Source of the DNA: Actinomycetes bacterium
Lineage (GTDB): Bacteria; Actinomycetota; Acidimicrobiia; Acidimicrobiales; Bog-793
Assembly (NCBI GenBank): GCA_021798745.1
Contig: JAJZBW010000001.1
Coordinates: 1,188-65,187, forward strand
DNA length: 64,000 nucleotides
Direction: 5' to 3'
Part shown: one piece after another, positions 9,432 to 48,274 of the stretch
Layout: each line of letters starts with the position of its first letter
Numbering within the stretch: the first letter of the stretch is position 1
Translations under genes and position numbers: made by a program
Notes under the pieces: model-generated
What the model saw: the letters and a program-made list of their open reading frames with translations, nothing else
Told to the model about the DNA's origin: nothing
Databases searched by the model: none

Positions 9432-9435
9432 GACG

Positions 9436-31609: not shown

Positions 31610-33394
31610 ATGAGCATTGCAACGACACCGGTGTCGGAGTGGTCGCGGCGCCTCGCGGAGGCGCTCGTGTCGAACGGCCAGCTCGACGCGGAGGCGGCGC
31701 GTGCCGCGCTCGCGCGCTCGGCCTCGAGTGGGACACCCGTCGCCGTGCTGCTCTCTCGCGAGGGCCTCGTCGAGAGCTCCGAGTCGCTCGAGTGCCTCGC
31801 CGCGATCTCCGGGCTTCGCGCGGTGGACCTCGACAGGGACCCCCCGACGCTCGCCGCCGCCGCCGCCGTCCCGCTCGGCGTCGCCCGCTACCACCGGGCG
31901 ATCGGCCAACGGCTCGAGGACGGGTACCTCGTGCTCGCGTGCTCCGAGCCTCTCGCGGCGGACCACCTCCAGTCGATCGCATCGGCCATCGACTGCGGGA
32001 TCGCGGGGTGCGTCCTCGGCGACCCCATCGTGATCGACAGGCTCATCGCACACGCAGGCGCGCCGCCGAGCACGCGTGCCGCCGACGAGGAGGACACCGT
32101 GAAGCTGCTCACGCGCGCGTCGACCCGCGACGCCCCGTCACCGGCTCGTGCCGGATCGTTCGCCTCGGGGTCCGCCGACGACCTCTTCGGGAGCGGGTAC
32201 GTGCTCGCGGACCGTGAGGAGCCGTCCACCCGGGTCGTGCTCGACCTCGGCCCCGCGTCGCCCGAGCGGGCGCTGCCCGACGGGACCTCCCCGACGGACC
32301 GTCGCCCCGGACCGTTCGGACGCCCGTTCGCGAGCGACGTGAACGACCTCTTGACCTTCGCTGTCGAGCACGGCGCGTCCGACCTGCACCTCGCTGCCCG
32401 GTTCGCGCCCGCCGTGCGCATCGACGGTTCGATCCGCCCCATCGAGGACCTCGAGCCGATGGAGCCGCTCGCGCTCCGGGACATGATCTTCCAGATCCTT
32501 CCCCAGTCGGTCCGGGAGCGGTACGAGGCGACGAAGGAGCTCGACACCTCCTACGAGATCCCCGACCTCGGGAGGTTCCGGCTCAGCGTGTTCCAGCAGC
32601 GCGGAGCCGTCGGGGCGGTGTTCCGGACGATCCCCCCGACGATCCCGACGCTCGAGTCGCTCGGCCTGCCGAGAGCGCTCGCGTCCTTCGCGGAGCTCCG
32701 CCGAGGTCTTGTGCTCCTCACGGGCCCGACGGGGTCGGGCAAGTCCACGACCCTCGCCGCCGTCGTCGACCGCATCAACGCGACGAAGCCCCTCCACATC
32801 ATGACCGTCGAGGACCCGATCGAGTACCACCACGAGCACAAGCGCTCGATCGTGAACCAGAGGGAGATCGGCCAGGACACCTCGTCGTTCGCCGAGTGCC
32901 TCCGTCACGTCCTTCGCCAGGACCCCGACGTGATCCTCGTCGGCGAGATGCGCGACCTCGAGACCATCTCGACCGCCCTCACGGCGGCCGAGACGGGCCA
33001 CCTCGTGTTCGCGACTCTCCACACCCAGGACGCGCCGCAGACGATCGACCGGGTGATCGACGCGTTCCCGACGAACCAGCAGGACCAGGTGCGCGTGCAG
33101 CTCGCAGGCGCGCTCGAGGCTGTCGTGACCCAGCAGCTCGTCATCGCCGAGGGGGGCGTCGGGCGCGTGCCGGTCGCCGAGGTGATGGTGTGCACGCCCG
33201 CGATCCGGAACCTCATCCGGTCGGCGAAGACCCACCAGATCTACTCCCTCATGCAGACCGGCGGGTCGAGCGGGATGCAGACGATGGACCAGGCGCTCGC
33301 CGACGCGGTGCGGGACCGCAAGATCAGCGAGAACGTCGCGTTCGACCGGGCGCACGACCCGAAGCAGCTCCTCGACTACCTGAAGGGCTCGTGA
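31610..33394 (+). CDS. pilT: PilT-type retraction ATPase with an about 240-aa N-terminal extension containing a T2SSE_N-like domain
   Basis: The C-terminal 350 aa form a canonical PilT: GPTGSGKSTT, DPDVILVGEMRD and the signature PAIRNLIRS. The N-terminus resembles GspE/PilB N-domains (LAEALVSNGQLDAEAARAAL...VLACSEPL). Confidence 0.88.
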   Translation: MSIATTPVSEWSRRLAEALVSNGQLDAEAARAALARSASSGTPVAVLLSREGLVESSESLECLAAISGLRAVDLDRDPPTLAAAAAVPLGVARYHRAIGQRLEDGYLVLACSEPLAADHLQSIASAIDCGIAGCVLGDPIVIDRLIAHAGAPPSTRAADEEDTVKLLTRASTRDAPSPARAGSFASGSADDLFGSGYVLADREEPSTRVVLDLGPASPERALPDGTSPTDRRPGPFGRPFASDVNDLLTFAVEHGASDLHLAARFAPAVRIDGSIRPIEDLEPMEPLALRDMIFQILPQSVRERYEATKELDTSYEIPDLGRFRLSVFQQRGAVGAVFRTIPPTIPTLESLGLPRALASFAELRRGLVLLTGPTGSGKSTTLAAVVDRINATKPLHIMTVEDPIEYHHEHKRSIVNQREIGQDTSSFAECLRHVLRQDPDVILVGEMRDLETISTALTAAETGHLVFATLHTQDAPQTIDRVIDAFPTNQQDQVRVQLAGALEAVVTQQLVIAEGGVGRVPVAEVMVCTPAIRNLIRSAKTHQIYSLMQTGGSSGMQTMDQALADAVRDRKISENVAFDRAHDPKQLLDYLKGS

Positions 33395-33401
33395 GCGCGC
33401 C

Positions 33402-34634
33402 ATGTCCATGACGACGTACGAGTACCGGGTCCGCGACAACGCGGGCAAGGTCGTGAAGGGCAGGATCGACGCGGACAACAAGTCGCTCGTCGCGACACGG
33501 CTTCGCGAGATGGGGTACCTTCCCATCGAGATCAAGGCGACGTCCGCGCTCGACCTCCACCGGGACATCCGGATCCCGGGCCTGAGCGACCGGGTGAACC
33601 TGAAGGAGATCTCGGTGATGAGCCGCCAGCTCGCGACGATGGTCGCGTCGGGGCTCACTCTCGTGCGGGCGATCGCCGTGCTCTCCGCCCAGGTCGAGTC
33701 CAAGCCGCTCCGCACCGTGCTCGTCGCCGTGCGCAGCGACGTCGAGCACGGAAGCTCGTTCTCCGCCGCCCTCGCGAAGCACCCGAAGGTCTTCGACCGC
33801 CTCTACGTGTCCATGGTGCGCGCGGGCGAGGTCGGTGGGCAGCTCGACGTCGTGCTCTTGAAGCTCGCGTCCTCGATCGAGAAGCGGGTCGAGCTGCGCT
33901 CCAAGGTGCGCTCGGCGTTCACCTACCCGGTCGTCGTCGTGTGCGTCGTCGTGCTCGTGATCACCGCGATGATGCTGTTCGTCGTCCCGACCTTCAAGCA
34001 CCTCTACGGGAGCCTCCACGGCACGCTCCCGCTCCCGACGCGCATCGTCATCGGCATCTCGAGCGTCGTCGCGAGCGTCTGGGCGCTCGCGGTGGTCGCT
34101 GTCGTCGCCGGCGTCGTCCTCGCTGCCCGCTGGTGGGTGTCGACCGAGAAGGGGCGACTCACCTGGGATCGTGTCCGGCTCCGTGCACCCGTGTTCGGCC
34201 CGCTCATGTTGAAGGTCGGCCTCTCCCGCATGCTCGCGACCCTCGCGACCCTTCTCTCCTCGGGCGTCGGCATCATCGAGTCCCTCGAGATGGCCGCGGA
34301 CAACGTGAGCAACCGGATCGTGAGCAACGCGGCCCGCGGGGCGATCGTGGGCGTGCGCGACGGGCGCTCGCTCGCGTCGGCGCTCGCCGAGCACCCGGTC
34401 GTCCCCCCGATGGTCCTCCAGATGGTCGAGACCGGCGAGGAGTCGGGCGCGGTGAGCGACATGCTGGAGAAGGTCGCCCAGTTCTACGACAACGAGATCG
34501 ACGCGACGGTCGGGAGCCTCACGTCGCTCCTCGAGCCCGCGCTCATCGTGTTCATGGGCATCTGCATCGGAGCGATCGTCATCAGCCTCTACCTGCCGAT
34601 GTTCGACTACGTAAAGCTCCTCCAGCCGTCGTAA
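33402..34634 (+). CDS. pilC: Type IV pilus platform protein PilC (GspF family)
   Basis: It has two T2SSF repeats, three TM segments and the typical C-terminus (LLEPALIVFMGICIGAIVISLYLPMF). Confidence 0.92.
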   Translation: MSMTTYEYRVRDNAGKVVKGRIDADNKSLVATRLREMGYLPIEIKATSALDLHRDIRIPGLSDRVNLKEISVMSRQLATMVASGLTLVRAIAVLSAQVESKPLRTVLVAVRSDVEHGSSFSAALAKHPKVFDRLYVSMVRAGEVGGQLDVVLLKLASSIEKRVELRSKVRSAFTYPVVVVCVVVLVITAMMLFVVPTFKHLYGSLHGTLPLPTRIVIGISSVVASVWALAVVAVVAGVVLAARWWVSTEKGRLTWDRVRLRAPVFGPLMLKVGLSRMLATLATLLSSGVGIIESLEMAADNVSNRIVSNAARGAIVGVRDGRSLASALAEHPVVPPMVLQMVETGEESGAVSDMLEKVAQFYDNEIDATVGSLTSLLEPALIVFMGICIGAIVISLYLPMFDYVKLLQPS

Positions 34635-34685: not shown

Positions 34686-36395
34686 ATGACGCGGCGAATC
34701 GGCATCGAGGTGACCGCCACCTCGGTGCGGGCTGTCGAGGTGGAGAGCGGCGGCGCGCGCTCGAAGGTGCTGTCGTTCGGGGAGGCGGCGCTCCCGAAGG
34801 GCGCGGTCGCCGACGGGGCGATCCTCGACCGCGCGGCCGTGAAGCGGACGGTCGCCTCCTGCCTCAAGAACGCCCACCTCGAGCGGCGGAGGTTCGGTGC
34901 CCCGCCCGAGGTGTGGCTCGCGGTCGCGGGCCTCCGGGCCATCAGCCGGGAGATCGTGATGCCGAGCGTCCCCGACGCGGACCTCGACGCGGCGGTCCGT
35001 CTGCAGGCGCTCGACATCATCCCGTTCCCCGAGGACGAGACCCTCCTGTCGGCACGGACCCTCGGGACCGTGACGTCCCCGGACGGGACCGAGCTCGTGC
35101 GGGTCCACCTCGCGGCTGCGCACCGGGCGCTCGTGGAGCCGTTCGTCGACGTGCTCGCCGAGTCCGGTCTCGTCGTGAAGGGCGTGGACCTCGCGTCGTC
35201 CGCCCTCGTGCGGGCGCTCGCGGGAGCGGACCTCGGGGTGGAGGCGATCGTCGCGATCGGCGCGGACCTCACGACCATCGTGATCCACGAGCACGGCGAG
35301 CCGCACTTCGTCCGGACGATCGCGGGCGGCGGGAACGCCGTGACTCGGGCCATCTCGGCGGCGCTCGACATCCCCGCGCCCGACGCGGAGCAGATAAAGA
35401 TCCGGCTCGGGTGGTCGCCGACCGACGCGGGGAGGCTCCCGGCGGAGGCCGTCGCTGCGGCGCGTGACGGCTCCGCCCCGCTTCTCGGGGAGATCCGGAG
35501 CTCGATCGACTACTTCGCGACGCTGCCCGGGCTCCCGGAGGTGTCACGTGTGCTCGTGACCGGCGGAGGCTCCCGGCTCGCGGGCTTCGTCGAGAGGCTC
35601 GAGTACCAGGTGCGCGTGCCCGTCACGACGGGGAGCTGGCTCGAGAACGTCGACACGGGACGCCTCGGCGTCGACCGCATCCACCTCGACACGGTCGGAG
35701 CGGTCGCCGCGGGCGCCGCCATGACGGAGCCCTCGGGTCGGAAGGCGCTCGACCTCCTCCCGCCCGAGGTCCTCGTCGAGCGACGCCGGGCGCGCACGAC
35801 GCGGGCGATCCAGAGCGCCGCAGTCGTGCTCGTCGTCGCGCTCGTCGCGGGCGGGGCGCTCCGCTTCCTCCAGGTCCGCAACGCCGAGCACGGCGTCGGG
35901 AACATCCAGGGCGAGATCTCGTACCTCGAGAGGCAGCTCCCCGCCTACGACAAGGTCCAGCAGCAGGACAACGCGATCCTCACGGACTCCCACATCGGGA
36001 TGCCGATCGTGAGCCACGAGGTGAACTGGCCTGCCGTGCTCGCCGCTCTCGCGCGGTACACGCCCTCGTCGGTCAGCGCGAGCGGCTTCTCGGGCTCGAC
36101 GACCGTCGCCCCGACGGCGGCGACGAGCGTGACGACCGGCCACCCGGTCGCTCCCCCGTCCGCCCTGCCCGCCGCGACCGACACGGTCGGGACGGTGAAC
36201 CTGTCCTTCTCCGCCCCCCAGTACCCCTCGTTCAAGGAGTGGTTCGACGCGATGGTCGCATCCGCGAGTTTCGAGATCGTCCAGTACTCCGGCGTGTCGA
36301 GCAGCGGGCACGGCGTCGACTTCACCGCGCAGCTCGCGGTGACGGGGAGGATCCACACGGACCGCCTCGCCGAGTTCGAGGTTCCGAAGCGATGA
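34686..36395 (+). CDS. pilM: PilM-PilN fusion protein (actin-like ATPase fold, then a TM and a PilN-like periplasmic domain)
   Basis: The N-terminal 350 aa are PilM-like (IGIEVTATSVRAVEV..., VLVTGGGSRLAGF). Then comes LDLLPPEVLVERRRAR, the TM AAVVLVVALVAGGAL, and about 200 aa beyond it. Confidence 0.85.
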   Translation: MTRRIGIEVTATSVRAVEVESGGARSKVLSFGEAALPKGAVADGAILDRAAVKRTVASCLKNAHLERRRFGAPPEVWLAVAGLRAISREIVMPSVPDADLDAAVRLQALDIIPFPEDETLLSARTLGTVTSPDGTELVRVHLAAAHRALVEPFVDVLAESGLVVKGVDLASSALVRALAGADLGVEAIVAIGADLTTIVIHEHGEPHFVRTIAGGGNAVTRAISAALDIPAPDAEQIKIRLGWSPTDAGRLPAEAVAAARDGSAPLLGEIRSSIDYFATLPGLPEVSRVLVTGGGSRLAGFVERLEYQVRVPVTTGSWLENVDTGRLGVDRIHLDTVGAVAAGAAMTEPSGRKALDLLPPEVLVERRRARTTRAIQSAAVVLVVALVAGGALRFLQVRNAEHGVGNIQGEISYLERQLPAYDKVQQQDNAILTDSHIGMPIVSHEVNWPAVLAALARYTPSSVSASGFSGSTTVAPTAATSVTTGHPVAPPSALPAATDTVGTVNLSFSAPQYPSFKEWFDAMVASASFEIVQYSGVSSSGHGVDFTAQLAVTGRIHTDRLAEFEVPKR

Positions 36396-36982
36396 GCGCC
36401 CCGGCCCGCAGCCTCGTGCAGCGCCCGGCGGTGCTCGTCTCGGTCGTCGGCGTCCTCGTGCTCGCTCTCGCGTGGTGGTTCGCGTGGATGGCGCCGGAGG
36501 GGACGAAGCTCGCGGGGATCCGCCAGCAGCAGGTCACCGCGCAGCAGACCGAGACGCGCCTCGACCTCCGGCTCGTCCAGCTCCGAGCGGAGGCCAAGCA
36601 GGTCCGGGCCGCCGCCCCGTTCCTCGAGCACTTCGCCCAGGCGATCCCGCCGGTCCCCGACGCCCCGGACCTCGTCGTCCAGGTGTACCACCTCGCGGTC
36701 GCGAACGGCGTGAGCCTGCAGAGCGTGACCGACGACTCCGTGCAGACCACGGGGCTCGGGTACTCGACGATCCCCGTCTCGCTCAGCGTCGCGGGGCCCC
36801 ACGACCAGCTCCTCGCGTTCGTCTCCGGCCTGTACAGGCTGACCCGCCTTCTCACGATCCAGTCCGTGAGCCTCTCCGGCAACGGCAACCTGAACGCGTC
36901 GAGCTTCTCGAACTACACGGCCTCGATCAGCGCGACCGCGTACACGACGTCGGCGCCGAAGGCCCCGGCGGGCGCGTCCTGA
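36392..36982 (+). CDS. pilO: PilO-like pilus assembly protein
   Basis: An ATGA overlap joins it to pilMN. It has an N-terminal TM (VLVSVVGVLVLALAWWF), a coiled coil and a PilO-type C-domain (IPVSLSVAGPHDQLLAFVSGLYRLTRLLTI). Confidence 0.8.
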   Translation: MSAPARSLVQRPAVLVSVVGVLVLALAWWFAWMAPEGTKLAGIRQQQVTAQQTETRLDLRLVQLRAEAKQVRAAAPFLEHFAQAIPPVPDAPDLVVQVYHLAVANGVSLQSVTDDSVQTTGLGYSTIPVSLSVAGPHDQLLAFVSGLYRLTRLLTIQSVSLSGNGNLNASSFSNYTASISATAYTTSAPKAPAGAS

Positions 36983-36990
36983 GCGAGACG

Positions 36991-38556
36991 ATGGCCGCGA
37001 CACCGTGGTCTCGTCGCGCTCGCGCCGACGCGCGCCGCGCGTGCGCCGGCGCGCCCCTCGACGACGGGTTCTCCCTCGTCGAGGTGCTCGTCGCGCTCCT
37101 CGTGCTCGCCCTCGTCGTGCTCCCCCTCACGCTCGTGCTCATAACGACGCACAGCTCGGCGAACACCCTGCACCGTAGAGCCGAGGCGGCGGACCTCGCG
37201 ACCCAGGCCCTCGAGACGGCCCAGTACCAGGCGGCCGCGGGCGCGCCGCTCGCGACCGGGGCGACGACGTCGACCCAGATGTCGGGGAGCGACCAGTTCC
37301 GCGTCTCGCTCGACCTCTCGATCCTCCCGCAGTCCGGGGTCGGCACGTTGTGCACGGCCCCTCCCGGGGCGACCTCGACCGAGGTGTGGCAGGCGACCGC
37401 GTCCGTGAGCTGGGGGTCGTCGGGGTCGAGCGGGAGCTCGGTCGTCGAGCGCGCGCTCATCTCGCCCGCGCAGGCCGACCTCGCGAACGTGAGCGCGGGC
37501 GAGATCGCCGTCCCGGTCTACACGACCGTCGCGTCCTCCATGTCGACGACCACGACGACGTCCTCCCCCGGCTCGCCCGCGGCGCTCCCGACGACGCTCG
37601 AGACACAGACCCCGATATCGGTGACCGTGACGGGCCGCTGCACCCTCGCATCCTGCGCGCAGCCCTCGGGCACCCCCCTGCCCGTGACGACGGAGACCGA
37701 GAACACAGGGTCGACCGGGTGCGCGGTCTTCCCGAACCTCTGGGCAGCGACGGGGTGGCTCTACACCGTGACCGTCTCCGGGAACGCGGGATGGGTCGAC
37801 CCGAGCGAGCTCTCGGACTCGGCGACCGCGACGGGCGTCCCGACGCTCGCGCCGATGGCGATCACTCCCGACTCCGTCACCCAGCCGACCGGCCAGATCG
37901 TCCTCGACCAGGGAGCGGCGGTCACGGTCGACTTCTCGGACACCGTGAACAAGTCGGCGGTGCCAGCTCCGTTCCTCCCCGTGACCTTCGTGAGCCCCGG
38001 GGCGTGCGGGAGCGCGGGCCTGTGCGTGCTCGGGAACGCGACGACTGCGTTCGCGACGGTGGCGTCCTCGGCGCAGACCGCCCTGCTCTTCCCGTTCCCC
38101 TCGGCCGGCGCCAACTACACGGTGTACGCGGGAGGGACGTCCGACGCGGACCCGAGCGCCGCGTACTACGGGACGGGCGGGACGGTCACGCGTCTCACGG
38201 CCGGCGCCGCGGGATCGGCGACGGTCACGCTGCCGCTGTACCCGCTCTCGCTGACGGCGACCGTGAAGAGCGACGCGGGCTCCGTCATCCAGCTCCTCGC
38301 GAAGGACTCGGCGGGGAACACGATCGACCTCAACTACGCGGGCGGGACCGGGGCGAGCCTCACGAGCCTTCCGCTCGGGGAGTACGAGATCGGGGCGACC
38401 GTCTCGGGCTCGAACTCGAACGTCACGTACTCGGGTGGGACCGCGTACATGTGGGTCACACCGACGGGAGTCTGCCCCTCCACGTCGCCGCTCTCCCCGG
38501 GGACCTCCGTGTGCTCGTCGCCCTCGACGTCGCAGATCGCGGTGACCGTCGGATGA
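36991..38556 (+). CDS. Large minor pilin (521 aa) with a prepilin N-terminal cleavage/methylation motif
   Basis: The class III signal is ...APLDDG|FSLVEVLVALLVLALVVLPL, with Glu5. A long Ser/Thr-rich beta-rich C-terminal region follows. Confidence 0.85.
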   Translation: MAATPWSRRARADARRACAGAPLDDGFSLVEVLVALLVLALVVLPLTLVLITTHSSANTLHRRAEAADLATQALETAQYQAAAGAPLATGATTSTQMSGSDQFRVSLDLSILPQSGVGTLCTAPPGATSTEVWQATASVSWGSSGSSGSSVVERALISPAQADLANVSAGEIAVPVYTTVASSMSTTTTTSSPGSPAALPTTLETQTPISVTVTGRCTLASCAQPSGTPLPVTTETENTGSTGCAVFPNLWAATGWLYTVTVSGNAGWVDPSELSDSATATGVPTLAPMAITPDSVTQPTGQIVLDQGAAVTVDFSDTVNKSAVPAPFLPVTFVSPGACGSAGLCVLGNATTAFATVASSAQTALLFPFPSAGANYTVYAGGTSDADPSAAYYGTGGTVTRLTAGAAGSATVTLPLYPLSLTATVKSDAGSVIQLLAKDSAGNTIDLNYAGGTGASLTSLPLGEYEIGATVSGSNSNVTYSGGTAYMWVTPTGVCPSTSPLSPGTSVCSSPSTSQIAVTVG

Positions 38557-39605
38557 CCGCTCCGTCGCGCCCGAGCGCCCCGCACCTCGGCCGTCCCCTA
38601 CGCCGCGCACGCAGGGGGGACGGAGGGTTCACGTTCATCGAGCTCCTCGTCGCGATGGCCGTCCTCGCGATCATCGTGCCCGTCATCTACGGGCTCATAG
38701 GGAACCTGAGCCAGCAGAGCGTCGACCTCCACGACACGATGCTCGGGCTGAAGCAGGACCAGACCGCCGGCAACGCGCTCCTCGAGTACCTGCACGGCGC
38801 GGTCACGGTCCTGCCGGGGTCGACCCCGACGACGCTCATCGCCTCGATCGAGGCGGGCTACAACACGACCACCGGGACCCAGGACATCGCGACGCTCGAA
38901 GCCCAGCTCGTGCCGCCGAGCGGCTCGAACGCCGACGCGTCCTTCGTCGTGTCCATCACCCCGCAGGGCGGGACGCCGCACCCCATCGGGACGTACTACG
39001 TCGTGAACGGCGCGAACCCCTTCACGTACTACTACTACGCGGCTGCGGGAACTGCAGCTCCCTCGTGCGGAGCGACGACCCCGACGACCACGACCAACCC
39101 GCCGGACGCGACCGGCCAGGAGCTCGTCGCGGTCCACGACCCGTGCGCCGTGCTCGCGAACGTCGTCGCGGTCGGGGTCGACGTCACGTTCCTCGCCGGG
39201 CCGCAGAAGCCCCTCCAGGGCTTCCAGGCAATCCAGCCGACGACGTTCCAGACGACCGTGTACCTCCAGAACGCGAACGCCCCCGCCCCGACGACCGCGA
39301 CGGCCGTGACCTACCCGAACATCTCGCCGACCTACGGGACCACGGTGGCGTTCACCGTCACGGTCACTCCCGCGCCCGACGGGGGCACGGTCACCGCGGT
39401 CGTCACGTTCGGGGGCTCGACGATCTCGAACTCCTGCTCGGGCGCCACGACGCTCTCGGCGACCGGTCAGGCGTCGTGCTCGTTCTTCGCGTCCTACCGC
39501 GGCACGTACACGGTCACCGCGACCTACTCGGGCGCGACGAGCCCACCCGCTGCCTCGGCCTACACCGCGTCGACCTCGGCGGGCACGCCGGTGAACGCGT
39601 CGTGA
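38553..39605 (+). CDS. Minor pilin (350 aa) with a C-terminal Ig-like domain
   Basis: An ATGA overlap joins it to the upstream gene. The signal is ...RRGDGG|FTFIELLVAMAVLAIIV. The C-terminus resembles a bacterial Ig-like fold (TTVAFTVTVTPAPDGGTVTAVVTFGGSTI...GTYTVTATYSGA). Confidence 0.85.
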   Translation: MTAPSRPSAPHLGRPLRRARRGDGGFTFIELLVAMAVLAIIVPVIYGLIGNLSQQSVDLHDTMLGLKQDQTAGNALLEYLHGAVTVLPGSTPTTLIASIEAGYNTTTGTQDIATLEAQLVPPSGSNADASFVVSITPQGGTPHPIGTYYVVNGANPFTYYYYAAAGTAAPSCGATTPTTTTNPPDATGQELVAVHDPCAVLANVVAVGVDVTFLAGPQKPLQGFQAIQPTTFQTTVYLQNANAPAPTTATAVTYPNISPTYGTTVAFTVTVTPAPDGGTVTAVVTFGGSTISNSCSGATTLSATGQASCSFFASYRGTYTVTATYSGATSPPAASAYTASTSAGTPVNAS

Positions 39606-41980
39606 GCGCGCCCCGCACGCTCCGGCGCCGGGCGCGCCGAGGGGTCGCGTCGGCGCTCCACCGGCGGCTCGAGGCCGTGCGCCACGGCCGGGACGACTCG
39701 GGCCAGATCATCGTGATCATCGTGATCCTCGTCGTGCTCCTCTCGGTCCTCGGCCCGCTCATGGCGTCTCAGATCACGAGCGACGCCCCGCTCGTCGTGC
39801 TCTCCACGAACAAGCACGCTGCTCTCGCCGCGGCGGAGTCCGGGATCGAGTGGTACCGGAACCACCTCGACGCGAACCCGAACTACTACCTCTACAGCGC
39901 CTCGAACCCGCCGTCCCCCGCGGACCCGGCGATGCTGGCGAACGGGTGGTGCTCGTCCGCGTGCGACCTCGGGGGAACGAGCCCGAGCGAGGCGTTCCAC
40001 TACGTCCCGAACGACTCGACCCTGTTCGCGACCTCCGGGACGAACGCGGGGCGCGTCGTGCTGACCGTGACCGGCCGGGGTGGCTCCGCGGGGAGCTACG
40101 TGTACGTGACCGCACGTGCGAGCTTCACCGCGAGCTCGATCCTCGCGAACGCGTACTTCTCGAACACCGAGGTCCTCGACCCCCTCTACCCCGACGAGCA
40201 GCAGACGGGCGTCTCGGTGACCGGGCTGAGCGCTCCCCAGGGGATCACGACGTACCCCGTGACGTACCCCGTGAACGGGACCGACACGACGACCTCGCTC
40301 TGGAACGCGCTCTGCGGCTACCAGACGTACCAGGCCAACACCTTCCTCGACTGGCTCGGCCAGACGCAGAACACGCAGATCGACGCGGAGAGCGCGACGA
40401 ACCCGAGCAACGTCACCGTGCAGGCGTACACGCCCACGCACCCCTACTACGGCCCCTACTACGGGGTCCAGGGGTTCAGCTTCACGAACGGCAACGGCGA
40501 GACCGTGAGCGTCCCGGGCATCGCGTGCGGCGGGACGTTCGACTTCAACACCGGCGAGAGCTTCGCGGGCCCCGTGTACTCGAACGACCAGCTCCACGTG
40601 TGTGGCTCGCCGACGTTCTCGGGGTCGCCCATCTCCTACACCTCGGGGGTCTCCTCGAACGTCGCCTACGCCTACGACTGGCTCGGCTCGGTGGAGGTCA
40701 CGCCGAAGACGGGCTCCCCCTACTACGCACCGGACGGAACGACCGTCGACCCCGTCCAGGGGTACTGCGGGCGGGGCGCGGCGCCGAACTTCGTGCACGG
40801 CTCGAGCCTGAACGGGAGCCTCGTCCTCCCGAGCTGGAACACCCAGCTCGCGTCCGCCGCGGCAGCCGGAGGGTGCCTGTTCACGGGACCGACGATGATC
40901 GCGCTCGTGACCTCGTCGACAGGAACGACGATGAACGTGTGGAGCCCGCTCTCAGGAGGCGCGAACGCCCCGGCCGCCGCGTGCAGCACGGGGAAGAGCC
41001 CGACCGGTGCGTCGCTCACGTCGTTCGGCCAGAGCTTCTCGGGGAGCTCGGGCCCGTACATCACGGGAATCCCGCTCCCCTCGAACGGCGTGGTCTTCGT
41101 CCAGAACGCAGGGGCGGCCGCGAGCGCCCCGACGGTCCAGGACGGCCTCAACAGCACGAACTCCGGGTGCATCAACCCGTACGTGAACCTCACGCAGGCG
41201 AACAACCCGATCCTGCCGACGGTCACGAAGACCTCCGCGACCTGCCTCGAGGGTGACGCCTTCGTGGAGGGAGAGCTGAAGGGCGAGCTCACGATCGGGT
41301 CCGCCGCGAACATCATCATCACCCGCGACCTCACGTACGCGTGCGCAGACGGGACGAGCGGGCCCGCGTCCCGGTCGGACCCGTCCTCCGTCGCCGCGTG
41401 CACGACGGGGACCACCCCGGACGTCCTCGGGCTCGAAGCCTTCGACAACGTCCTCATATCGCACCCCGTGAGCTCCCCCTACTCGGCCGCCCAGATGGCG
41501 AGCGGCACCCTCACGAACAACGGCGTGTCGATGTGCACCTACGACGGCACGGCCGCGACCGCTGCGACGCTCGCGGGGGGGACCTCGGGCGACCCCACGA
41601 GCGGGAAGACGATCGGCGAGCCCGTCGCGGTGTGGCCGAGCTGTGACATCGCGAACCCGATCGTCGACGCCGCCGTGATCTCGCTGAACGGCGCTCTCGG
41701 CGTCGAGTTCTGGGACCAGGGCTCCCCGCAGGCCTCGAACGGGGTGTTCCTGAACGGCGCGGACATAAGCCAGTACCGGGGACCTTTCGGGCTGATGAGC
41801 CCGTACTACGGAACCTGGGGGTACGACAAGCAGTTCAGCTTCGACAGCCGCCTCCAGTTCCTCCAGCCCCCCGACGCGCTCCAGTCGGCCGTGACCTCCT
41901 GGCAGGACCTCGGGTACGTCGTGTGCGGCAACGCGAACATCGCGACCGAGCCGACCCCCGTGTGCCCGCCGCTCGGCTAG
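39602..41980 (+). CDS. PilX-N-like, membrane-anchored large pilus-associated protein (792 aa, Cys-rich), a putative tip or adhesin component
   Basis: A GTGA overlap joins it to the upstream gene. The N-terminus DDSGQIIVIIVILVVLLSVLGPL resembles PilX_N and has no Glu5. I count about 16 Cys. The rest belongs to no family I recognise. Confidence 0.75.
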   Translation: MSAPRTLRRRARRGVASALHRRLEAVRHGRDDSGQIIVIIVILVVLLSVLGPLMASQITSDAPLVVLSTNKHAALAAAESGIEWYRNHLDANPNYYLYSASNPPSPADPAMLANGWCSSACDLGGTSPSEAFHYVPNDSTLFATSGTNAGRVVLTVTGRGGSAGSYVYVTARASFTASSILANAYFSNTEVLDPLYPDEQQTGVSVTGLSAPQGITTYPVTYPVNGTDTTTSLWNALCGYQTYQANTFLDWLGQTQNTQIDAESATNPSNVTVQAYTPTHPYYGPYYGVQGFSFTNGNGETVSVPGIACGGTFDFNTGESFAGPVYSNDQLHVCGSPTFSGSPISYTSGVSSNVAYAYDWLGSVEVTPKTGSPYYAPDGTTVDPVQGYCGRGAAPNFVHGSSLNGSLVLPSWNTQLASAAAAGGCLFTGPTMIALVTSSTGTTMNVWSPLSGGANAPAAACSTGKSPTGASLTSFGQSFSGSSGPYITGIPLPSNGVVFVQNAGAAASAPTVQDGLNSTNSGCINPYVNLTQANNPILPTVTKTSATCLEGDAFVEGELKGELTIGSAANIIITRDLTYACADGTSGPASRSDPSSVAACTTGTTPDVLGLEAFDNVLISHPVSSPYSAAQMASGTLTNNGVSMCTYDGTAATAATLAGGTSGDPTSGKTIGEPVAVWPSCDIANPIVDAAVISLNGALGVEFWDQGSPQASNGVFLNGADISQYRGPFGLMSPYYGTWGYDKQFSFDSRLQFLQPPDALQSAVTSWQDLGYVVCGNANIATEPTPVCPPLG

Positions 41981-42152
41981 CGGTCGCGCGTCCGCGGACG
42001 GAGCCGCCGGCGGCGCCGGCGGGCGCACGCGTGCCACGAGTCGTGGTCGACGAGCGCGCCCGACGGGGGAGGGTCCGGACTTTCGCCTCAAGGAGGTGTC
42101 ACGTCGCGCCGTTGTAACCGAGAGCCGAGCGTCGGCGCGATCCCAAGGAGGA

Positions 42153-42755
42153 ATGGAAGAGTTGCGAACCCATCTCAAGCGGCATCTCTCGAAGATGTCC
42201 GAGGGCGCCGATGAGGGATTCACGCTCATCGAGCTCCTCGTCGTCCTGTTGATCCTCGGCATCCTGCTGGCGATCGCGATCCCCACGTTCCTCACGGTGA
42301 CGAAGAGCGCGACCAACACAGCGGTGACGTCGAACCTTCAGACCGCCCTCACGGGTGCGGACACCTACTACACGCAGAACAACGGGAGCTACACCTCCCT
42401 CGTCGGCGCGACGTCGGTGTCGGACATCACCCAGGAGGGGACGGGTCTCTCGTTCCCGGCCAAGACGGACGGCTCGGCGGCCTCGACCAGCTCGAAGGTC
42501 GTCAGCCTCGACGTCATCGACTCGAACGACCTCGTGCTCGCGGCGTGGAACGGGAGCAACCGCTGCTACGCGATCGCGGACCAGAAGTCGCAGGGGGTCA
42601 TCTCGACGACCTTCACCAGCCTCCCGAAGGCAGTCGGGACCTACTACGGCTGGTACAAGGCGACGACGAACGCGACCTGCACGTCGGCGGGCGCGACGGC
42701 CGTCACGGCGACCGGACCGGGCGCGTGGACGAACACGGGCGGCTTCCCGGCGTAG
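42153..42755 (+). CDS. pilA: Major type IV pilin
   Basis: AAGGAGG lies 5-6 nt upstream of the ATG. The leader MEELRTHLKRHLSKMSEGADEG precedes |FTLIELLVVLLILGILLAIAIPTF. An alternative ATG at 42195 would give an 8-aa leader. A strong hairpin follows the stop. Confidence 0.9.
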   Translation: MEELRTHLKRHLSKMSEGADEGFTLIELLVVLLILGILLAIAIPTFLTVTKSATNTAVTSNLQTALTGADTYYTQNNGSYTSLVGATSVSDITQEGTGLSFPAKTDGSAASTSSKVVSLDVIDSNDLVLAAWNGSNRCYAIADQKSQGVISTTFTSLPKAVGTYYGWYKATTNATCTSAGATAVTATGPGAWTNTGGFPA

Positions 42756-42782
42756 CACCACGAGAGGTGACGTGAATCGAGC

Positions 42783-42819
42783 CCTCGGTCGTGGCGCTCC
42801 TCGAGCGCCACGACCGAGG
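42783..42819. terminator. Strong bidirectional hairpin (15-17 bp stem: CCTCGGTCGTGGCGC...GCGCCACGACCGAGG) after pilA
   Basis: A perfect inverted repeat was read from the sequence between the convergent stops at 42755 (+) and 42918 (-). Confidence 0.7.
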
Positions 42820-42917
42820 CGAGGTGCAGGGGCCCCGGTCGGCGCATCCGGCCGGGGCCCTTCGCCGTCCGGGGCCCGCCCGTCGTGCCCGGTCGCCCGG
42901 GGCCCCGGCCGACCCGC

Positions 42918-44687
42918 TCAGCGCGTCCCGCCGAGCTGGGCCAGGAGCTGGTGCGCGGGACGGTAGCCAGGTGCGGTCGCGAGCGCGCGGCGGAGGAGCA
43001 CGACGGCCTCCGTGCTGTGCCCCTCGTGTGCCTCGACGCGGGCGAGCCCGACGAGCGCCTCGGTCGCGAACCGGTCGAGACGGAGCGCGGTGCCGTACTC
43101 GGCGGTCGCGGCGCGCAGGTTCCCGAGCTCCGCGTCGGCGCCCGCGAGACCCGTCCACATCTGGGTGTCCGTCGGGTTGCGGCTCACTGCGACCGAGTGC
43201 CAGTAGCGGGAGAGACGGAGCCAGTGCGTCCCGTCCGCGAGGGCGACCGAGCGGTTCGTGGCGACCTCGGCGGGCACGAGCGCCGCGTCGGCCCACACCG
43301 CGAGCGCCCGTGCTCCGGCCGTCGCGACCGGGTAGTCGAACCGGAGGAGAGCGACGTTGAGCTCGTAGTCCCCGTAGAGCATGACGGCGGACGCGCCGAG
43401 CGCGACGAGCGTGAGCGCTGCCGTCGCCGCGTGGCGCGCCCGGCCGCGGCTCGGGCCGCCCGAGAGCGCCGTCCCCGCACCGGCCGCTCCGAGCGCGAGG
43501 AACGCGATCGGCGTGACCCCGACGTTGAGGGGCTCGACGAGCTCGACCGCGACCGCCATCACGGCGACGCCGAGGAGCGCTCCGGAGGCGCCCCGGAGCG
43601 CGAGAAGCCCGAACGCGGCGAACGCGAGGATCCCGAGGATCCCGGTCGTGATCGCGACCTCGACGAAGATGTCGTGCGCGTCCGTGAAGTACGTCGCGAC
43701 CGGGAGGCGCCGCGCGAGCGCCGCCGACTCGAACGCGGTCGACGCCTGGAGGGTCTGGCCCGGGCCGAAGCCGATCAGCGGCCGATGCTCGAACGCATGG
43801 AGGAGCACCTTCCACAAGGTGGGACGCGGGTTCGAGACGACGCTCTGCGCGATGCGCTCGTGGACGAGCGCGCTCGAGAGCCCGTAGGTCACGGCGTAGC
43901 CCGCCGCGAGCGACGCGGCGAACAGGGCGGCGAAGCGGTCCCGGTGGACGACGAGCGCCCACGCGGCGAGGAGCGCGAGGAGGGCGATCGCGAACCGCTC
44001 GCCGCTGAGCTCGAGCGACGCGGAGAGCAGGAGGGCGAGGAGCGACCACCTCCACCTCCCGGAGCACGTGCGCACGAGAACGACCGCGAGCGCTCCGAGC
44101 TCGATGCTCTCGAGGAAGATCGGGTTCCCCATGAGCCCGTCCGCCTGCGTGCCCTGGTAGAGGCCGAGGACCGGGCTCGCGAGCTGGAAAGCCTGCTGGA
44201 CGATCGCCACGAGGGCGTTCACGACGGCGCTCGCGACGAGACCGGCCACGACGAGCTCCCGGCCGCGCGGGCCGGTCGAGCGACCGATCGCCCACGCCCC
44301 GACGACGCCGCACCAGAACACCCACCCGGTCCCGGTGAGGTACCCCCCGAAGAACCCCGACAGCACGCTCCCGGAGGACGCGGCCGAGGCGAGCCCGACG
44401 GCGAGGAACGCGGCCGCCGCCCACGCGGCGCGGTCCCGCGCGCGGCATCGACGTGCGAGCTGAGGCAGCCCGACGGCCGCGACGACGAGCAGGACCGCGA
44501 GCTTCGGCGTGAACGTGTAGGAGCCCATGACCGGGGAGATCGCGACGGGGAGGAGGAACGCGACGATCGCCGCGAACACGTCGAGGGCTCCCGCTCCCTC
44601 GAGCCACTCCGGCACGGCGAAGCGCGAGGTCGGCGCGGCACCGGTGATTGAATTGGTCACGGTGGCGAGGTCAGCGCGGTGGCTCAT
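42918..44687 (-). CDS. O-antigen ligase/polymerase-like (Wzy_C) polytopic membrane protein with C-terminal TPR repeats
   Basis: The Wzy_C-type loop reads HRPLIGFGPGQ...DAHDIFVEVAITTGILGIL. It has more than 10 TM segments. The C-terminus looks TPR-like (AELGNLRAATAEYGTALRLD...). The start is uncertain (44687, 44660 or 44615). Confidence 0.8.
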   Translation of the reverse strand: MSHRADLATVTNSITGAAPTSRFAVPEWLEGAGALDVFAAIVAFLLPVAISPVMGSYTFTPKLAVLLVVAAVGLPQLARRCRARDRAAWAAAAFLAVGLASAASSGSVLSGFFGGYLTGTGWVFWCGVVGAWAIGRSTGPRGRELVVAGLVASAVVNALVAIVQQAFQLASPVLGLYQGTQADGLMGNPIFLESIELGALAVVLVRTCSGRWRWSLLALLLSASLELSGERFAIALLALLAAWALVVHRDRFAALFAASLAAGYAVTYGLSSALVHERIAQSVVSNPRPTLWKVLLHAFEHRPLIGFGPGQTLQASTAFESAALARRLPVATYFTDAHDIFVEVAITTGILGILAFAAFGLLALRGASGALLGVAVMAVAVELVEPLNVGVTPIAFLALGAAGAGTALSGGPSRGRARHAATAALTLVALGASAVMLYGDYELNVALLRFDYPVATAGARALAVWADAALVPAEVATNRSVALADGTHWLRLSRYWHSVAVSRNPTDTQMWTGLAGADAELGNLRAATAEYGTALRLDRFATEALVGLARVEAHEGHSTEAVVLLRRALATAPGYRPAHQLLAQLGGTR

Positions 44688-45981
44688 ATCGGGCCTGACG
44701 GTAGCCGTCGTGGTCGCGCTCGGCGAGGCTCACGCACATCTCGTCGGGCACTACCGGTTCACCGCGTTCCCGCGCTTCGGATGGCTCGTCGTGTTCACGG
44801 CCCTCCTTCTCGTGTCCTTCTACGCAGCAGGGCTCCCCGAGTCGGCCCGCCGCTTCTCCGGTGCGCTCGTCCGATCGTTCGCGGCGGCCCTCGTCGCGGC
44901 AGGGACCGTGTCGGTCATGGCGCTCGTCGTCGGGGAGCCCCTCCTCCCGCGCTTCGTGGTGTTCCTCGCCGTGGCGCTCCTCACCCCCCTCGTCGCGCTG
45001 CTCGCGAGGCTGACCTCCGGGGTGGGCGGCCGACGCGACGCGGCCGAACGCGTGCTCGCGGTCGTCGGTCCGGCCGAGGCGGGGGCGCTCGCGGCCGACC
45101 TCAGGGTCGCCCGCGAGCGGCCCGCGTTGCTCGTGGCGAGCGCGCTCGCGCAGGACGTCCGGTCCAGCGCGTCACGCCCGCGGCCGCTCGCGGAGCTCGT
45201 CACGGCGCACCAGGCGACTCTCGTCGTGCTCTCGCGCGAGGCCATCTCGGACGAGGACGTCGTCGTGCAGGCGGCGGAGCTCCACCGTAGGGGGTGCAAG
45301 GTCCGCACGCTCGCCCTGTTCTACGACCAGTGGCTCGGCAAGCTCCCGCTCAGCGAGCTCGAGCGGTCCGCGCTCCTCTTCGACATCCACGAGATCCACA
45401 ACCCCGCGTACGCGCGCACGAAGCGAGCGGTCGACGTGCTCGCCTCGCTGTGCGCGCTCCCTCTCCTCGCGCTCGCCGCGGTCCTCGTCGTGGTCGCGGA
45501 CCTCGCCGGGAACCGCGGTCCGTTGCTCTACCGACAAGAGCGCGTCGGGAAGGACGGGAGGATCTTCACGATCCTCAAGTTCCGGACGATGGCCCCGCTC
45601 TCGGGCGAGCCGACCTGGACGAGCGTGGACGACCGCCGTGTCGGCCGGGTGGGGCGCGCCATGCGCAAGACCCACGTCGACGAGCTCCCCCAGGTCCTGA
45701 ACGTGCTCCGTCGCGAGCTGTCCATAGTCGGCCCCCGTCCCGAGCAGCCCCGATACGTCGCCGAGCTCGCACGGAGGATCGACTACTACGACCTCCGCCA
45801 CCTCGTGCAGCCGGGGATCACCGGCTGGGCACAGGTGAACTTCGACTACGGCTCGAGCGGGTTCGACGCGCTCGAGAAGCTCCAGTACGAGTTCTACTAC
45901 CTGCGCCACCAGAGCCTCCTCCTCGACGCGCGCATCGTGGGGCGGACGCTCCGCTCGATCGTCGGTCGCACGGGCCGTTAG
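44662..45981 (+). CDS. Polyprenyl-phosphate glycosyl-phosphotransferase (bacterial sugar transferase, WbaP/EpsB-like)
   Basis: The motifs are GKDGRIFTILKFRTM, DELPQVLNVLRRELSIVGPRP and GITGWAQV. The start is uncertain (GTG at 44662, or later at about 44710). Confidence 0.88.
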   Translation: MARSARWLISGLTVAVVVALGEAHAHLVGHYRFTAFPRFGWLVVFTALLLVSFYAAGLPESARRFSGALVRSFAAALVAAGTVSVMALVVGEPLLPRFVVFLAVALLTPLVALLARLTSGVGGRRDAAERVLAVVGPAEAGALAADLRVARERPALLVASALAQDVRSSASRPRPLAELVTAHQATLVVLSREAISDEDVVVQAAELHRRGCKVRTLALFYDQWLGKLPLSELERSALLFDIHEIHNPAYARTKRAVDVLASLCALPLLALAAVLVVVADLAGNRGPLLYRQERVGKDGRIFTILKFRTMAPLSGEPTWTSVDDRRVGRVGRAMRKTHVDELPQVLNVLRRELSIVGPRPEQPRYVAELARRIDYYDLRHLVQPGITGWAQVNFDYGSSGFDALEKLQYEFYYLRHQSLLLDARIVGRTLRSIVGRTGR

Positions 45982-45987
45982 CCCCTC

Positions 45988-47463
45988 ATGCGCGCGGCGC
46001 CGCTCGTCGAGCGAGACAGGCTCTCGGGGCGCTCGCTCGTGTCGGGCTCCGCGGTGCAGATGGGCGGGCGGGCCGCAGCCATCGTCCTCCAGGCGGCGAG
46101 CGTCGCGCTTCTCACGCGTCTGCTCGGCCAGGCGCGCTTCGGGGACTTCTCCGCCGGGCTCGCGACGGTCGGGATCGTGGCCGCGGTGGCCGAGTTCGGG
46201 CTCACCGCGATGGCCGTCGTCCGGATGGGGAGAGGGGAGGCGGCGCGCTCCGTCGTCCGCTCGTGCGCGCTCGCGTCGCTCGTGACCGGGCTCGTGGGCC
46301 TCGCGATCGCGGTCCCCACGTCGTTCGCCCTGTTCGACGCGTCGAAGAGGCTCGCGCTCTGGGTGCTCCTCCCGGGGACCGCCGTCGAGCTCGGTGGGAT
46401 CGGGCTCGTCGCGTACTGGCAGCACCGCCTCGCGTTCGCCCGGAACGCCCTCGCGTCCGCGGCCGGGCAGGCCGTCGGGTGCGCGCTGGTCGCCGTCGTC
46501 CTTCTCGACGGGCGTCGGCTCGGCGAGAGCGCGCAGTTCCTCGCGGTCGGCGGTGCGATGCTCGCAGCGTCGGCCACGGTCGTCGCGCTCCTCGTGCCGC
46601 GCGGCCCCGACAGGCTCGCTGGCGCCCCGCGTTCCCCGGCCGCACGTGACGTGCGCTCCCTCCTCCTCGCGGCACTCCCGCTCGGGCTGGCGGGCTCCCT
46701 GTCCCTCATGCACATGCGCGCCGACCAGGTGATCCTCGCGGCCCTCGGCTACAGGAGGAGCCTCGCGAGCTATGCGATCGCCTACCAGGTGCTCCAGGGA
46801 GTCGTCGTCGCGGTCGGGTCGGTCGGCGCGGTCGGGTTCAGCTTCATGGCAGCGAGCAGCTCCGGTGACCGCGCGCGCCACGCGCGACGTTCCGCCGCGC
46901 TCCTGTGCGACCTCGGGGTCGTGGCGTCCGCCGGGGTGGCGCTCCTCGCGCCGGTGGCCGTGTACCTGCTCGGGGGGTCTTCCTACGACGGGGCGCTCCA
47001 CGTGAGCAGGCTGCTCGCGCCCGTCGTGGTGCTGTCCGTCGGCAACACGATGGCAGGGCGCGTCCTCATCGTCGAAGGGCGCGCGCGGTCCCTCGTGTAC
47101 GTCGCGTCCGGCGCGCTCCTCGTGAACGTCGCGCTGTGCCTCCTCCTCATCCCCCGCTACGGGATCGGCGGGGCCGCCGTCGCGACGGTGTCCTCCGAGG
47201 CGCTCGGGGCCGCCCTCGTCGTCGCGATCGCCGAGCGTGCCGTTCCGACGAGCCAGCCGGTCGCGATCCTCGTCGTGGCGGCGGTGGGCTCGACTGCCGC
47301 GGCTCTCACGAGCGCCTCGTCGTCGGGGGGCGTCCCCGTGTCACTCGGCCTGTGGGCCGCGACGCTCGTCGGGTGCCTCCTTCTCTCCCGAGAGGCCTGG
47401 AGCCGACGTGACCCGCTCCGGGCCGGCGCGCCCTGCGCGCTCGAGGAGCCGGACGCGCGCTGA
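45988..47463 (+). CDS. Polysaccharide biosynthesis protein / Wzx-like flippase (MOP superfamily)
   Basis: It is a 491-aa polytopic protein of about 12-14 TM segments, sitting in a glycan cluster. No sharp motif supports the call, only topology and context. Confidence 0.6.
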   Translation: MRAAPLVERDRLSGRSLVSGSAVQMGGRAAAIVLQAASVALLTRLLGQARFGDFSAGLATVGIVAAVAEFGLTAMAVVRMGRGEAARSVVRSCALASLVTGLVGLAIAVPTSFALFDASKRLALWVLLPGTAVELGGIGLVAYWQHRLAFARNALASAAGQAVGCALVAVVLLDGRRLGESAQFLAVGGAMLAASATVVALLVPRGPDRLAGAPRSPAARDVRSLLLAALPLGLAGSLSLMHMRADQVILAALGYRRSLASYAIAYQVLQGVVVAVGSVGAVGFSFMAASSSGDRARHARRSAALLCDLGVVASAGVALLAPVAVYLLGGSSYDGALHVSRLLAPVVVLSVGNTMAGRVLIVEGRARSLVYVASGALLVNVALCLLLIPRYGIGGAAVATVSSEALGAALVVAIAERAVPTSQPVAILVVAAVGSTAAALTSASSSGGVPVSLGLWAATLVGCLLLSREAWSRRDPLRAGAPCALEEPDAR

Positions 47464-48228
47464 GGCCACGAGGTCGAGCGCGATCCCCTCGACGAGCGCC
47501 CTCGGGGTGACGACCTCGGGCCACCGCCTCCTCGCGCCCCGGTGCACCGCGAGCAGCGAACGGACGGGGAGCGAGTTCCGCGAGCCTCCCTCGTGCCGGC
47601 GGTAGCCGAGCCAGGTGTCCGGGACCGGCACCCCCGTCGCCCCGCGCGAGAGGGCGGCGACCCAGAAGGCCCAGTCCTCCATCCCGGTGCGATCGAACCC
47701 CGCGTCGAACCCGCCCACCTGCTCGAAGAGCTCGCGGGTGAACATCGCCGACCCGTTCACGAAGTTCGCCCTCGCGAGCCTCCGGGGGTCGAAGGGCCGC
47801 GCGGGCCAGGACCCGGAGCGGCTCCCGAAGTAGCGGACGCCGCTGTAGGCGAAGGACGCCTCGGTCCCGACGAGCCGCGCCTCGAGCGCCTCGAGGTAGT
47901 TCGGTGCGACGACGTCGTCCGCGGAGAGGATCACGACGAGCTCCCCACCCGTGGCGCGCACCCCGTCGTTGAAGGTCGCGACCGCCCCGCGTGCGGGCGC
48001 GCGGGAGAGCACGCCGCAGGCGGGCCATCGCTCGGCGAAGGCGCGGGCGACGTCGAGCGTCTCGTCGGCGCTCCCGTCGTCGACCACGAGGACCTCGTCG
48101 GCGGGTCGCGTCTGCGCCGCGATGCTCCCGAGCGCGTCCGGGAGGAACCGCCCGTAGTCGTGGCAGGGGACGACCACGCTCAGCGTCCGCACGCCCCCGG
48201 GGATCGCCGCGCGCAGCGGAGCGCTCAC
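47341..48228 (-). CDS. Glycosyltransferase family 2
   Basis: The motifs LSVVVPCHDYGRFLPDALGSIAAQT...VLVVDDGSADET and SADD are present. Its 3' end overlaps the flippase 3' end by 123 nt (convergent). Confidence 0.85.
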   Translation of the reverse strand: MSAPLRAAIPGGVRTLSVVVPCHDYGRFLPDALGSIAAQTRPADEVLVVDDGSADETLDVARAFAERWPACGVLSRAPARGAVATFNDGVRATGGELVVILSADDVVAPNYLEALEARLVGTEASFAYSGVRYFGSRSGSWPARPFDPRRLARANFVNGSAMFTRELFEQVGGFDAGFDRTGMEDWAFWVAALSRGATGVPVPDTWLGYRRHEGGSRNSLPVRSLLAVHRGARRRWPEVVTPRALVEGIALDLVASARVRLLERAGRAGPERVTSAPGLSGEKEAPDERRGPQAE

Positions 48229-48274
48229 GTCACCACGCTACCGACGGGTGCCGGCGGGCCGGTAGCGTCGGTCC

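Follow-up and report, generated by a model that had tools for sequence, protein, structure and literature searches.

A large cysteine-rich protein encoded with the minor pilins of an Acidimicrobiia type IV pilus cluster: a probable PilX/GspK-type tip subunit

What does a type IV pilus cluster do with a protein of 792 amino acids (aa), rich in cysteine and without an evident family, that is encoded directly behind its minor pilins? The question is raised by a 64,000-nucleotide (nt) stretch of contig JAJZBW010000001.1 (assembly GCA_021798745.1; 'the window' hereafter) from an Actinomycetes bacterium of the class Acidimicrobiia, in which such a protein is encoded at positions 39602–41980 (coordinates are those of the window, on its plus strand unless a minus sign is given). 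The original prediction took the protein for a PilX_N-type anchor without the usual Glu at position 5 (Glu5), for a member of a pilus priming or tip module and, in its large domain of unrecognized fold, for a substitute for the PilY1/PilC adhesins, and as far as sequence can carry such a reading, it is supported. We think it likely that the protein caps the minor-pilin priming complex in the type IV pilus of this monoderm organism, as the counterpart of PilX, PilK and GspK. Read from the sequence, it has a membrane anchor with its N-terminus inside, a predicted extracytoplasmic and Cys-rich bulk, no Glu5, a prepilin peptidase (PilD) and minor pilins encoded alongside, and homology to the PilX_N and DUF4900 families.

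Because the window is ~72% GC, long spurious open reading frames (ORFs) are common in it. This frame is open for all 792 codons, and its G+C content at third codon positions (GC3) is 0.96 along the whole length, as expected of a genuine gene at such a composition. The product is identical to M0Z33_06625, a 'hypothetical protein' from a metagenome-assembled genome (MAG) deposited at NCBI as Actinomycetota bacterium, and it has 51 close full-length homologues that are 32–84% identical to it. Of the mature protein, 43% is Ser, Gly, Ala or Thr and 5.8% is Asn, in agreement with the Gly/Asn/Thr-rich stretches that had been noticed at the outset.

The N-terminus has the make-up of a class III signal peptide: a basic, Arg-rich leader of 34 residues (39602–39703; RRRARR...RDDSG, continuing into QIIVIIVILVVLLSVLGPLMA) with Gly at position –1, and then a hydrophobic helix. 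Across the putative prepilin-peptidase site, which follows Gly34, the sequence reads ...RDDSG/QIIVIIVILVVLL, with no Glu at +5, and the hydrophobic run that follows RDDSG is 21 residues long. The end of the leader resembles the leader ends of the three Glu5 pilins encoded in the same cluster. Among relatives, Gly occupies –1 in 126 of 127 ungapped sequences, with acidic residues ahead of it, and Glu occupies +5 in none of 135, the six commonest residues there being I, L, T, M, S and V. The alpha-1 helix that begins after the leader (residues 35–91, 39704–39874), recognized from the predicted structure and from sub-threshold PilX_N and GspK matches in relatives, is hydrophobic in its N-terminal half and then displays an AALAAAE(S/A)GI motif. 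A leader with an invariant Gly and no Glu5 is, at the level of sequence, the signature of the capping minor pilins PilX, PilK and GspK, and the anchor is thus of the kind first proposed. Absence of Glu5 is taken to confine this class to the tip of the filament (10.64898/2026.02.12.705559).

The company that the gene keeps points the same way. Minor pilin 1 (36991–38556, 521 aa; N_methyl 24 bits) has Glu5 (DDG/FSLVEVLVAL), and it matches the NCBIfam models PilV (E 5e-7) and XpsI (E 6e-6), both below threshold, which makes it PilV/GspI-like. Minor pilin 2 (38553–39605, 350 aa; Pfam N_methyl 28.2 bits) has Glu5 as well (GDGG/FTFIELLVAM). The TGA stop of the latter (39603–39605) overlaps the GTG start of the large gene (39602–39604) by 4 nt, and the GTGA coupling that had been reported can therefore be read directly from the DNA; overlaps of the same size join minor pilin 1 to minor pilin 2 and, further upstream, PilM(-N?) to PilO. 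Last after two minor pilins, with 4-nt overlaps, and the first of the pilins PilV/GspI-like if only below threshold: this is the gene order of the capping class.

The arrangement recurs in relatives. A scan of species-representative genomes yielded 48 related loci. Almost all belong to genomes whose titles give Acidimicrobiia or an Actinomycetota MAG not classified further, and many of these come from metagenomes of peat or soil. In 43 of 45 loci a prepilin motif of the GFxxxE type precedes the family member, on its own strand and at no more than ~3.3 kb, and about half of the loci have two such motifs; gene tables show a module of two Glu5 pilins and then the family member, which may stand by itself or be duplicated in tandem. 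Orthologues of minor pilin 2 precede the family member in loci L001, L004 and L005, overlapping start and stop codons are found in relatives too, and a distant homologue from Candidatus Omnitrophota likewise follows an N_methyl pilin. These observations bear on the plainest of the alternatives, in which the protein is an unrelated secreted or surface protein and a mere passenger of the operon. The lack of a recognized family or fold for most of its length would suit a passenger, but the link to upstream prepilins extends to the Omnitrophota homologues and the codon overlaps to other relatives, and we regard this explanation as most improbable. Membership of the minor-pilin module, as the original prediction had it, stands. 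The further remark that the gene lies just upstream of pilA is true here, where ~170 nt separate the two, but does not hold as a general rule: the two closest relatives (L006 and L007) have pilA as a neighbour, and a prepilin motif occurs downstream in four more distant loci.

To what family does the protein belong? Searches of Pfam and NCBIfam with the protein itself returned no match at E ≤ 0.1, and searches of PDB sequences, with phmmer and with two family profiles, produced matches at chance level only, ribosomal protein S24e and a cupin among them. The earlier statement that the bulk has no recognizable family is correct, then, where curated models are concerned, but the protein is not family-less. 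When the 51 family members were scanned singly against Pfam and NCBIfam, sub-threshold matches appeared at the N-terminus to PilX_N in seven (best E 5.5e-4) and to the NCBIfam model T2SS_GspK in nine, and, in the family's most conserved block, to DUF4900 in 26 (the gathering cut-offs are 25.5 bits for PilX_N, PF14341, and 29.4 bits for DUF4900, PF16241). In the protein studied here, DUF4900 reaches 13.4 bits (E 0.1), below its cut-off, over residues 309–342 (40526–40627; CGGTFDFNTGESFAGPVYSNDQLHVCGSPTFSG), a DUF4900-like motif that coincides with the most conserved block of the family.

More sensitive comparisons extend this connection. An exhaustive profile search (E ≤ 1e-3) gathered 3550 cluster representatives, for clusters at 50% identity, many of them shorter at 520–620 aa. 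A word-indexed search of 5.8 billion proteins turned up P0203, a protein of 569 aa with a genuine DUF4900 domain (42.7 bits), which the family profile matches with an E of 4e-15 and which hmmsearch aligns with positions 10–531 of the 564 in that profile. Its relatives, from Candidatus Omnitrophota, are named 'DUF4900 domain-containing proteins', and PilX_N occurs as well in a few of them; P0203 has no match among PDB sequences. The word-indexed search made with the broad family alignment found little beyond P0203 and one other protein, P0202. Aligned profile to profile with hhalign, the family and the Omnitrophota DUF4900 proteins correspond with 98.5% probability (E 3e-15) over residues 560–760. 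On the strength of the sub-threshold matches, the P0203 alignment and the hhalign result, the protein is placed, by sequence, as a divergent, elongated and Cys-rich branch of the DUF4900/PilX_N superfamily. The placement says little about function: a full-text search found the literature on the role of DUF4900 to be nearly silent, with one passing mention, and 'hypothetical protein' is the name that family members bear in the source annotations seen.

The same searches bear on a second alternative, that the protein, an accessory factor or enzyme anchored in the membrane, never enters the fibre, and that its ectodomain, held by an uncleaved signal-anchor, remodels wall polymers or regulates assembly. 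The original prediction had picked out a beta-helix-like passage, one relative has a non-significant Beta_helix match (E 0.6), and both the atypical residue at +1, to which we return below, and the want of any curated pilin model that matches the protein would fit such a role. The homology to unrelated enzyme families of which the original prediction was wary does not appear in Pfam, NCBIfam or the PDB, however; Foldseek reports no structural match to lyases, hydrolases or tailspikes, the leader motif is like that of the co-encoded pilins, and gene order and homology indicate PilX/GspK, instead. With no enzyme match of any kind, the enzymatic form of this idea was rejected, and we consider the idea as a whole unlikely.

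Cysteine is the most conspicuous feature of the composition. The count, put at about 16 originally, is exactly 16, or 2.0% of residues, whereas 29 other genes of the window average 0.86%; the cluster's other pilins have nine, four and two. Thirteen of the 16 positions are kept as Cys in at least 47 of the 51 homologues, far beyond chance, and thus the conserved pattern that had been looked for exists. Most family members have even totals of 16, 18 or 20. Co-loss of cysteines across homologues suggests the disulfides C117–C121, C334–C389, C581–C600 and C775–C788, and W767, C775 and C788 are each at least 90% conserved. As many as eight disulfides might be present in the ectodomain, to judge from the conserved positions. 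Genuine as it is, and informative about structure, the pattern is no anomaly for an actinobacterium, as the original prediction had supposed it to be for a GC-rich Gram-positive: Cys-bearing exported proteins are normal in Actinobacteria, ~60% of whose exported proteins have even numbers of Cys, and which, unlike Firmicutes, depend on MdbA-type oxidative folding (PMC9974433).

AlphaFold2, supplied with the 51-sequence alignment, produced a full-length model with a mean pLDDT of 78.5 and a pTM of 0.78. The model has one continuous 57-residue helix (residues 35–91), three long beta-strands that would form the pilin-domain sheet (residues 130–178, 39989–40135), a long beta-rich region, and a final, conserved strand (residues 766–776, SWQDLGYVVCG, 41897–41929), after which the C775–C788 pair is completed. 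Helix and strands might together form a pilin fold, and the top PDB match, if a weak one, is to a GspK-like protein. This is ComZ of Thermus thermophilus (6QVI), the single near-significant match of the full-length model in a Foldseek search of the PDB (E 1.3e-3). A large beta-solenoid is inserted in this GspK-like pilin, which is argued to be a DNA receptor located at the pilus tip (PMC6561018). By analogy with GspK, CpaL and cyanobacterial PilX, strand 766–776 (W767...C775) probably returns to the N-terminal sheet. In the PilK class the last strand of the sheet may come in trans from PilY1/PilC, whereas GspK and CpaL provide it themselves, in cis (PMC13533445), and a strand that returned here would make the protein a cap and an adhesin in a single chain.

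Between the sheet and the final strand lies the central ectodomain (residues 180–760, 40139–41881), beta-rich, and with 12 of the 16 cysteines. Modeled alone it attains a pLDDT of 80.5 and a pTM of 0.87, and it has no Foldseek neighbour in the PDB or BFVD; its fold is as unrecognized as it was thought to be. The match to ComZ disappears once residues 1–179 and 761–792 are removed. Membership among ComZ-like solenoids, for which a match to ComZ or to an ice-binding beta-solenoid was expected, was dropped when neither turned up in the PDB or BFVD.

Might the pilus serve for competence all the same, and the protein, in the manner of ComZ, be the DNA receptor at its tip? Of solved structures ComZ is the closest, the cluster includes a PilT-like retraction ATPase, and in Thermus and in cyanobacteria competence pili make use of large PilX proteins (PMC6561018; 10.64898/2026.02.12.705559). 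The mature part of this protein is strongly acidic, however, with an isoelectric point (pI) of 4.1 and 7 Lys and 9 Arg in 759 residues, its central domain by itself has no match to the ComZ solenoid, and no family of the comEA/comEC type was found among the ORFs scanned, in a scan that covered part of the window. A DNA receptor seems to us decidedly improbable.

Capping of the pilus remains the reading that we favour, and several points weigh against it. No curated model, whether PilX_N, GspK or DUF4900, reaches threshold on the protein. The likeness to ComZ is weak, with a probability of 0.57 and a TM-score of 0.19/0.25. The gene has no cultured host. And the residue at +1 is Gln (Gln35, 39704–39706), which is unusual for a PilD substrate, and on account of which cleavage after Gly34 is to be taken as putative. 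This Gln is found in 38 of 41 close relatives, but many distant ones have V, I, F, M or L there. We note in passing that a Gln conserved at the mature N-terminus could carry a modification other than the usual N-methyl-Phe.

How might such a protein work? Its Arg-rich leader and hydrophobic alpha-1 helix would insert it into the membrane with the N-terminus inside, as the sequence indicates, and PilD would then probably cut after Gly34. Together with the two co-translated Glu5 minor pilins it would form a seed like that of GspI–GspJ–GspK, as homology and gene order suggest, upon which PilA could polymerize. Because it has no Glu5, it could occupy solely the very tip of the fibre. There the Cys-rich, acidic ectodomain of ~580 residues, set between the pilin sheet and the C-terminal strand, would ride exposed, and might both plug the tip and bind a surface ligand, a job that falls to a separate protein, PilY1/PilC, in Proteobacteria. 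The ligand is more likely to be a glycan or a solid surface than DNA: the pI of 4.1 and the total of 16 Lys and Arg, the indel-rich variable loops that the family displays among its conserved cores, and the existence of a relative extended by FN3 domains all favour an adhesive or glycan-binding role. That relative, P0202 (1204 aa, at 8001–11615 of locus L055), has four FN3 domains after the family region, and the C-terminus evidently tolerates extracellular add-ons.

A bolder proposal can be made, although we put it forward tentatively and rather doubt that all of it will hold. It is that the central 580 residues, with their conserved cysteines, are a new fold that acts as an adhesin at the tip of type IV pili in monoderm actinobacteria; that this fold shares a chain with a PilK-like sheet and the sheet's terminal strand and lies between the two, to give PilK plus PilY1 in a single protein; and that it defines a large family without curated annotation, with 3550 representatives and no curated model at threshold on any member scanned.

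The protein is encoded within what is, by sequence, a complete type IV pilus cluster that resembles those of type IVa pili (PilB, PilC, PilM, PilO, PilT). Identified by Pfam, and in order, are a PilT-like ATPase (26881–27978), PilB (29044–31581), a second T2SSE-type ATPase directly after it (31610–33394, 594 aa, with an MshEN domain), PilC (33402–34634), a PilM of 569 aa with a possible PilN-like tail (34686–36395) and PilO (36392–36982). The prepilin peptidase PilD is encoded between the first two (28037–28990, minus strand; A24_N_bact 110 bits, and Peptidase_A24) and is 50% identical to the PilD of locus L005. In the PilM-domain protein the PilM_2 match ends at about residue 315, and a hydrophobic segment lies near residue 380; it may be a PilM–PilN fusion. 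Beyond the minor pilins and the large gene comes the major pilin PilA (42153–42755, 200 aa; ADEG/FTLIELLV), identified by Pfam and by its leader motif, with a ribosome-binding site of its own (AAGGAGG). No secretin family was found among the window ORFs scanned, in keeping with a monoderm organism. The tail of minor pilin 2 is an Ig-like Big_3_5 domain (residues 255–342, 32.3 bits, just under the cut-off of 35.5), and matches to Big_3_5 are recorded for its orthologues in L001 and L004.

A few other observations concern the surroundings. An antisense ORF within the large gene (40723–41457, minus strand, 244 aa, GC3 0.93) was considered and set aside as no gene, being a mirror-frame shadow of the high-GC coding strand. 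A six-frame hmmsearch found no second family member in the window, and a scan of 36000–43200 for promoters and terminators gave nothing informative. Convergent to pilA is a gene for a Wzy_C protein of the O-antigen-ligase type with C-terminal TPR repeats (42918–44687, minus strand), and past it, at 44527–49141, are a sugar transferase, a flippase-like protein and two GT2 glycosyltransferases. The region may be a locus for pilin O-glycosylation, to judge from these families. In L005 a Wzy_C protein, 36% identical to that of the window, sits between PilD and a pilin gene, and gene tables of related loci show the module itself beside PilD, a Wzy_C protein and a pilin.

Some relatives have more than one module. 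Pilin–pilin–family-member modules are arranged in tandem in L001 (1464–12220), L055 (769–11615) and L004 (2930–12280), and in L004 one module seems to be of a short form (185, 199 and 530 aa) and the other of a long form (528, 399 and 759 aa). If its 530-aa protein, a putative member, does belong to the family, a genome of this kind would have two specialized tip complexes. A short-form relative is encoded within 4911–17974 of L054, on a contig of 4.8 Mb, in a cluster with pilins, PilD, PilM and a faint match to PilO, and shortly afterwards come genes of the shikimate pathway: chorismate synthase, shikimate kinase, dehydroquinate synthase and dehydroquinase. The layout recalls the pilMNOPQ–aroK–aroB linkage of Proteobacteria.

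Type IV pili of the Actinomycetota, and those of Acidimicrobiia especially, are essentially unstudied, as far as a full-text search of the literature reveals. If our reading is true, abundant bacteria of peat and soil build pili tipped by one protein that joins a PilK cap to a PilY1-like adhesin, and they add a monoderm, probably disulfide-stapled case to an emerging rule, by which pilins of the PilX class take on the function of the tip in the absence of PilY1. The rule is based at present on ComZ of Thermus, PilX of cyanobacteria and CpaL of Caulobacter. Nothing held by pilus specialists is overturned. Interest would be greater if the central domain proved to be a new fold, or if the architecture of PilK plus PilY1 in a single chain proved true. 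Because the family is large, at 3550 representatives, and its members go by 'hypothetical protein', the practical gain is a rule for annotation and a candidate for structure determination.

How, finally, does the protein compare with the systems that are known? It shares with the PilX/PilK/GspK class a Gly at –1, the missing Glu5, an AAEAG-type motif in alpha-1, and the last place in the order pilV–pilW–pilX or gspI–gspJ–gspK. It differs in being three to four times longer, in falling below threshold for the curated models (PF14341, NF037980), and in having Gln at +1. With the Omnitrophota DUF4900 proteins it has in common the motifs GPVH/YSND, LGL, xAA(I/V)xAL and YDxRL...PP, as well as a position after N_methyl minor pilins, whereas P0203, the one inspected, has 569 aa and no Cys at all. 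ComZ, too, is a large protein that combines a GspK-like pilin module with a big extra beta-rich domain; its gene lies beside that of a minor pilin, and the tip is its proposed location. There is no detectable sequence similarity between the two, however, and the triangular beta-solenoid of the ComZ type is not matched by the central domain; ComZ has ~550 aa and binds DNA, whereas this protein has 792, with 16 Cys, and is very acidic, and Thermus is a diderm, whose pilus crosses a secretin.

Other resemblances are those of architecture or role. The PilX1–3/HpsA-type PilX proteins of cyanobacteria and the CpaL/TadG proteins likewise have a bulky domain between pilin sheet and terminal strand, a likeness in architecture only. 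The bulky domains of cyanobacterial PilX are proposed to replace the PilY1 plug (10.64898/2026.02.12.705559), and CpaL, which resembles a capping minor pilin in the Tad pili of Caulobacter, is proposed to replace PilY1 as plug and adhesin where PilY1 is absent (PMC13533445); CpaL without its middle domain is reported to support piliation still, but no longer adhesion (PMC13533445). Unlike TadG/CpaL, the protein described here has no Pfam match at E ≤ 0.1, to TadE/G-like and vWA domains included, and its locus resembles that of a type IVa pilus, instead. PilY1/PilC has the same proposed role, as a large tip adhesin encoded directly after the minor pilins, but PilY1 and PilC are separate, non-pilin proteins with a C-terminal beta-propeller, and they donate their strand in trans; our protein has a pilin-like anchor of its own, and no PilY1/PilC domain match (Pfam, E ≤ 0.1). 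Most likely, then, it is an unannotated new example of the large PilX/GspK-type tip minor pilins that are already known, and not a new kind of system.

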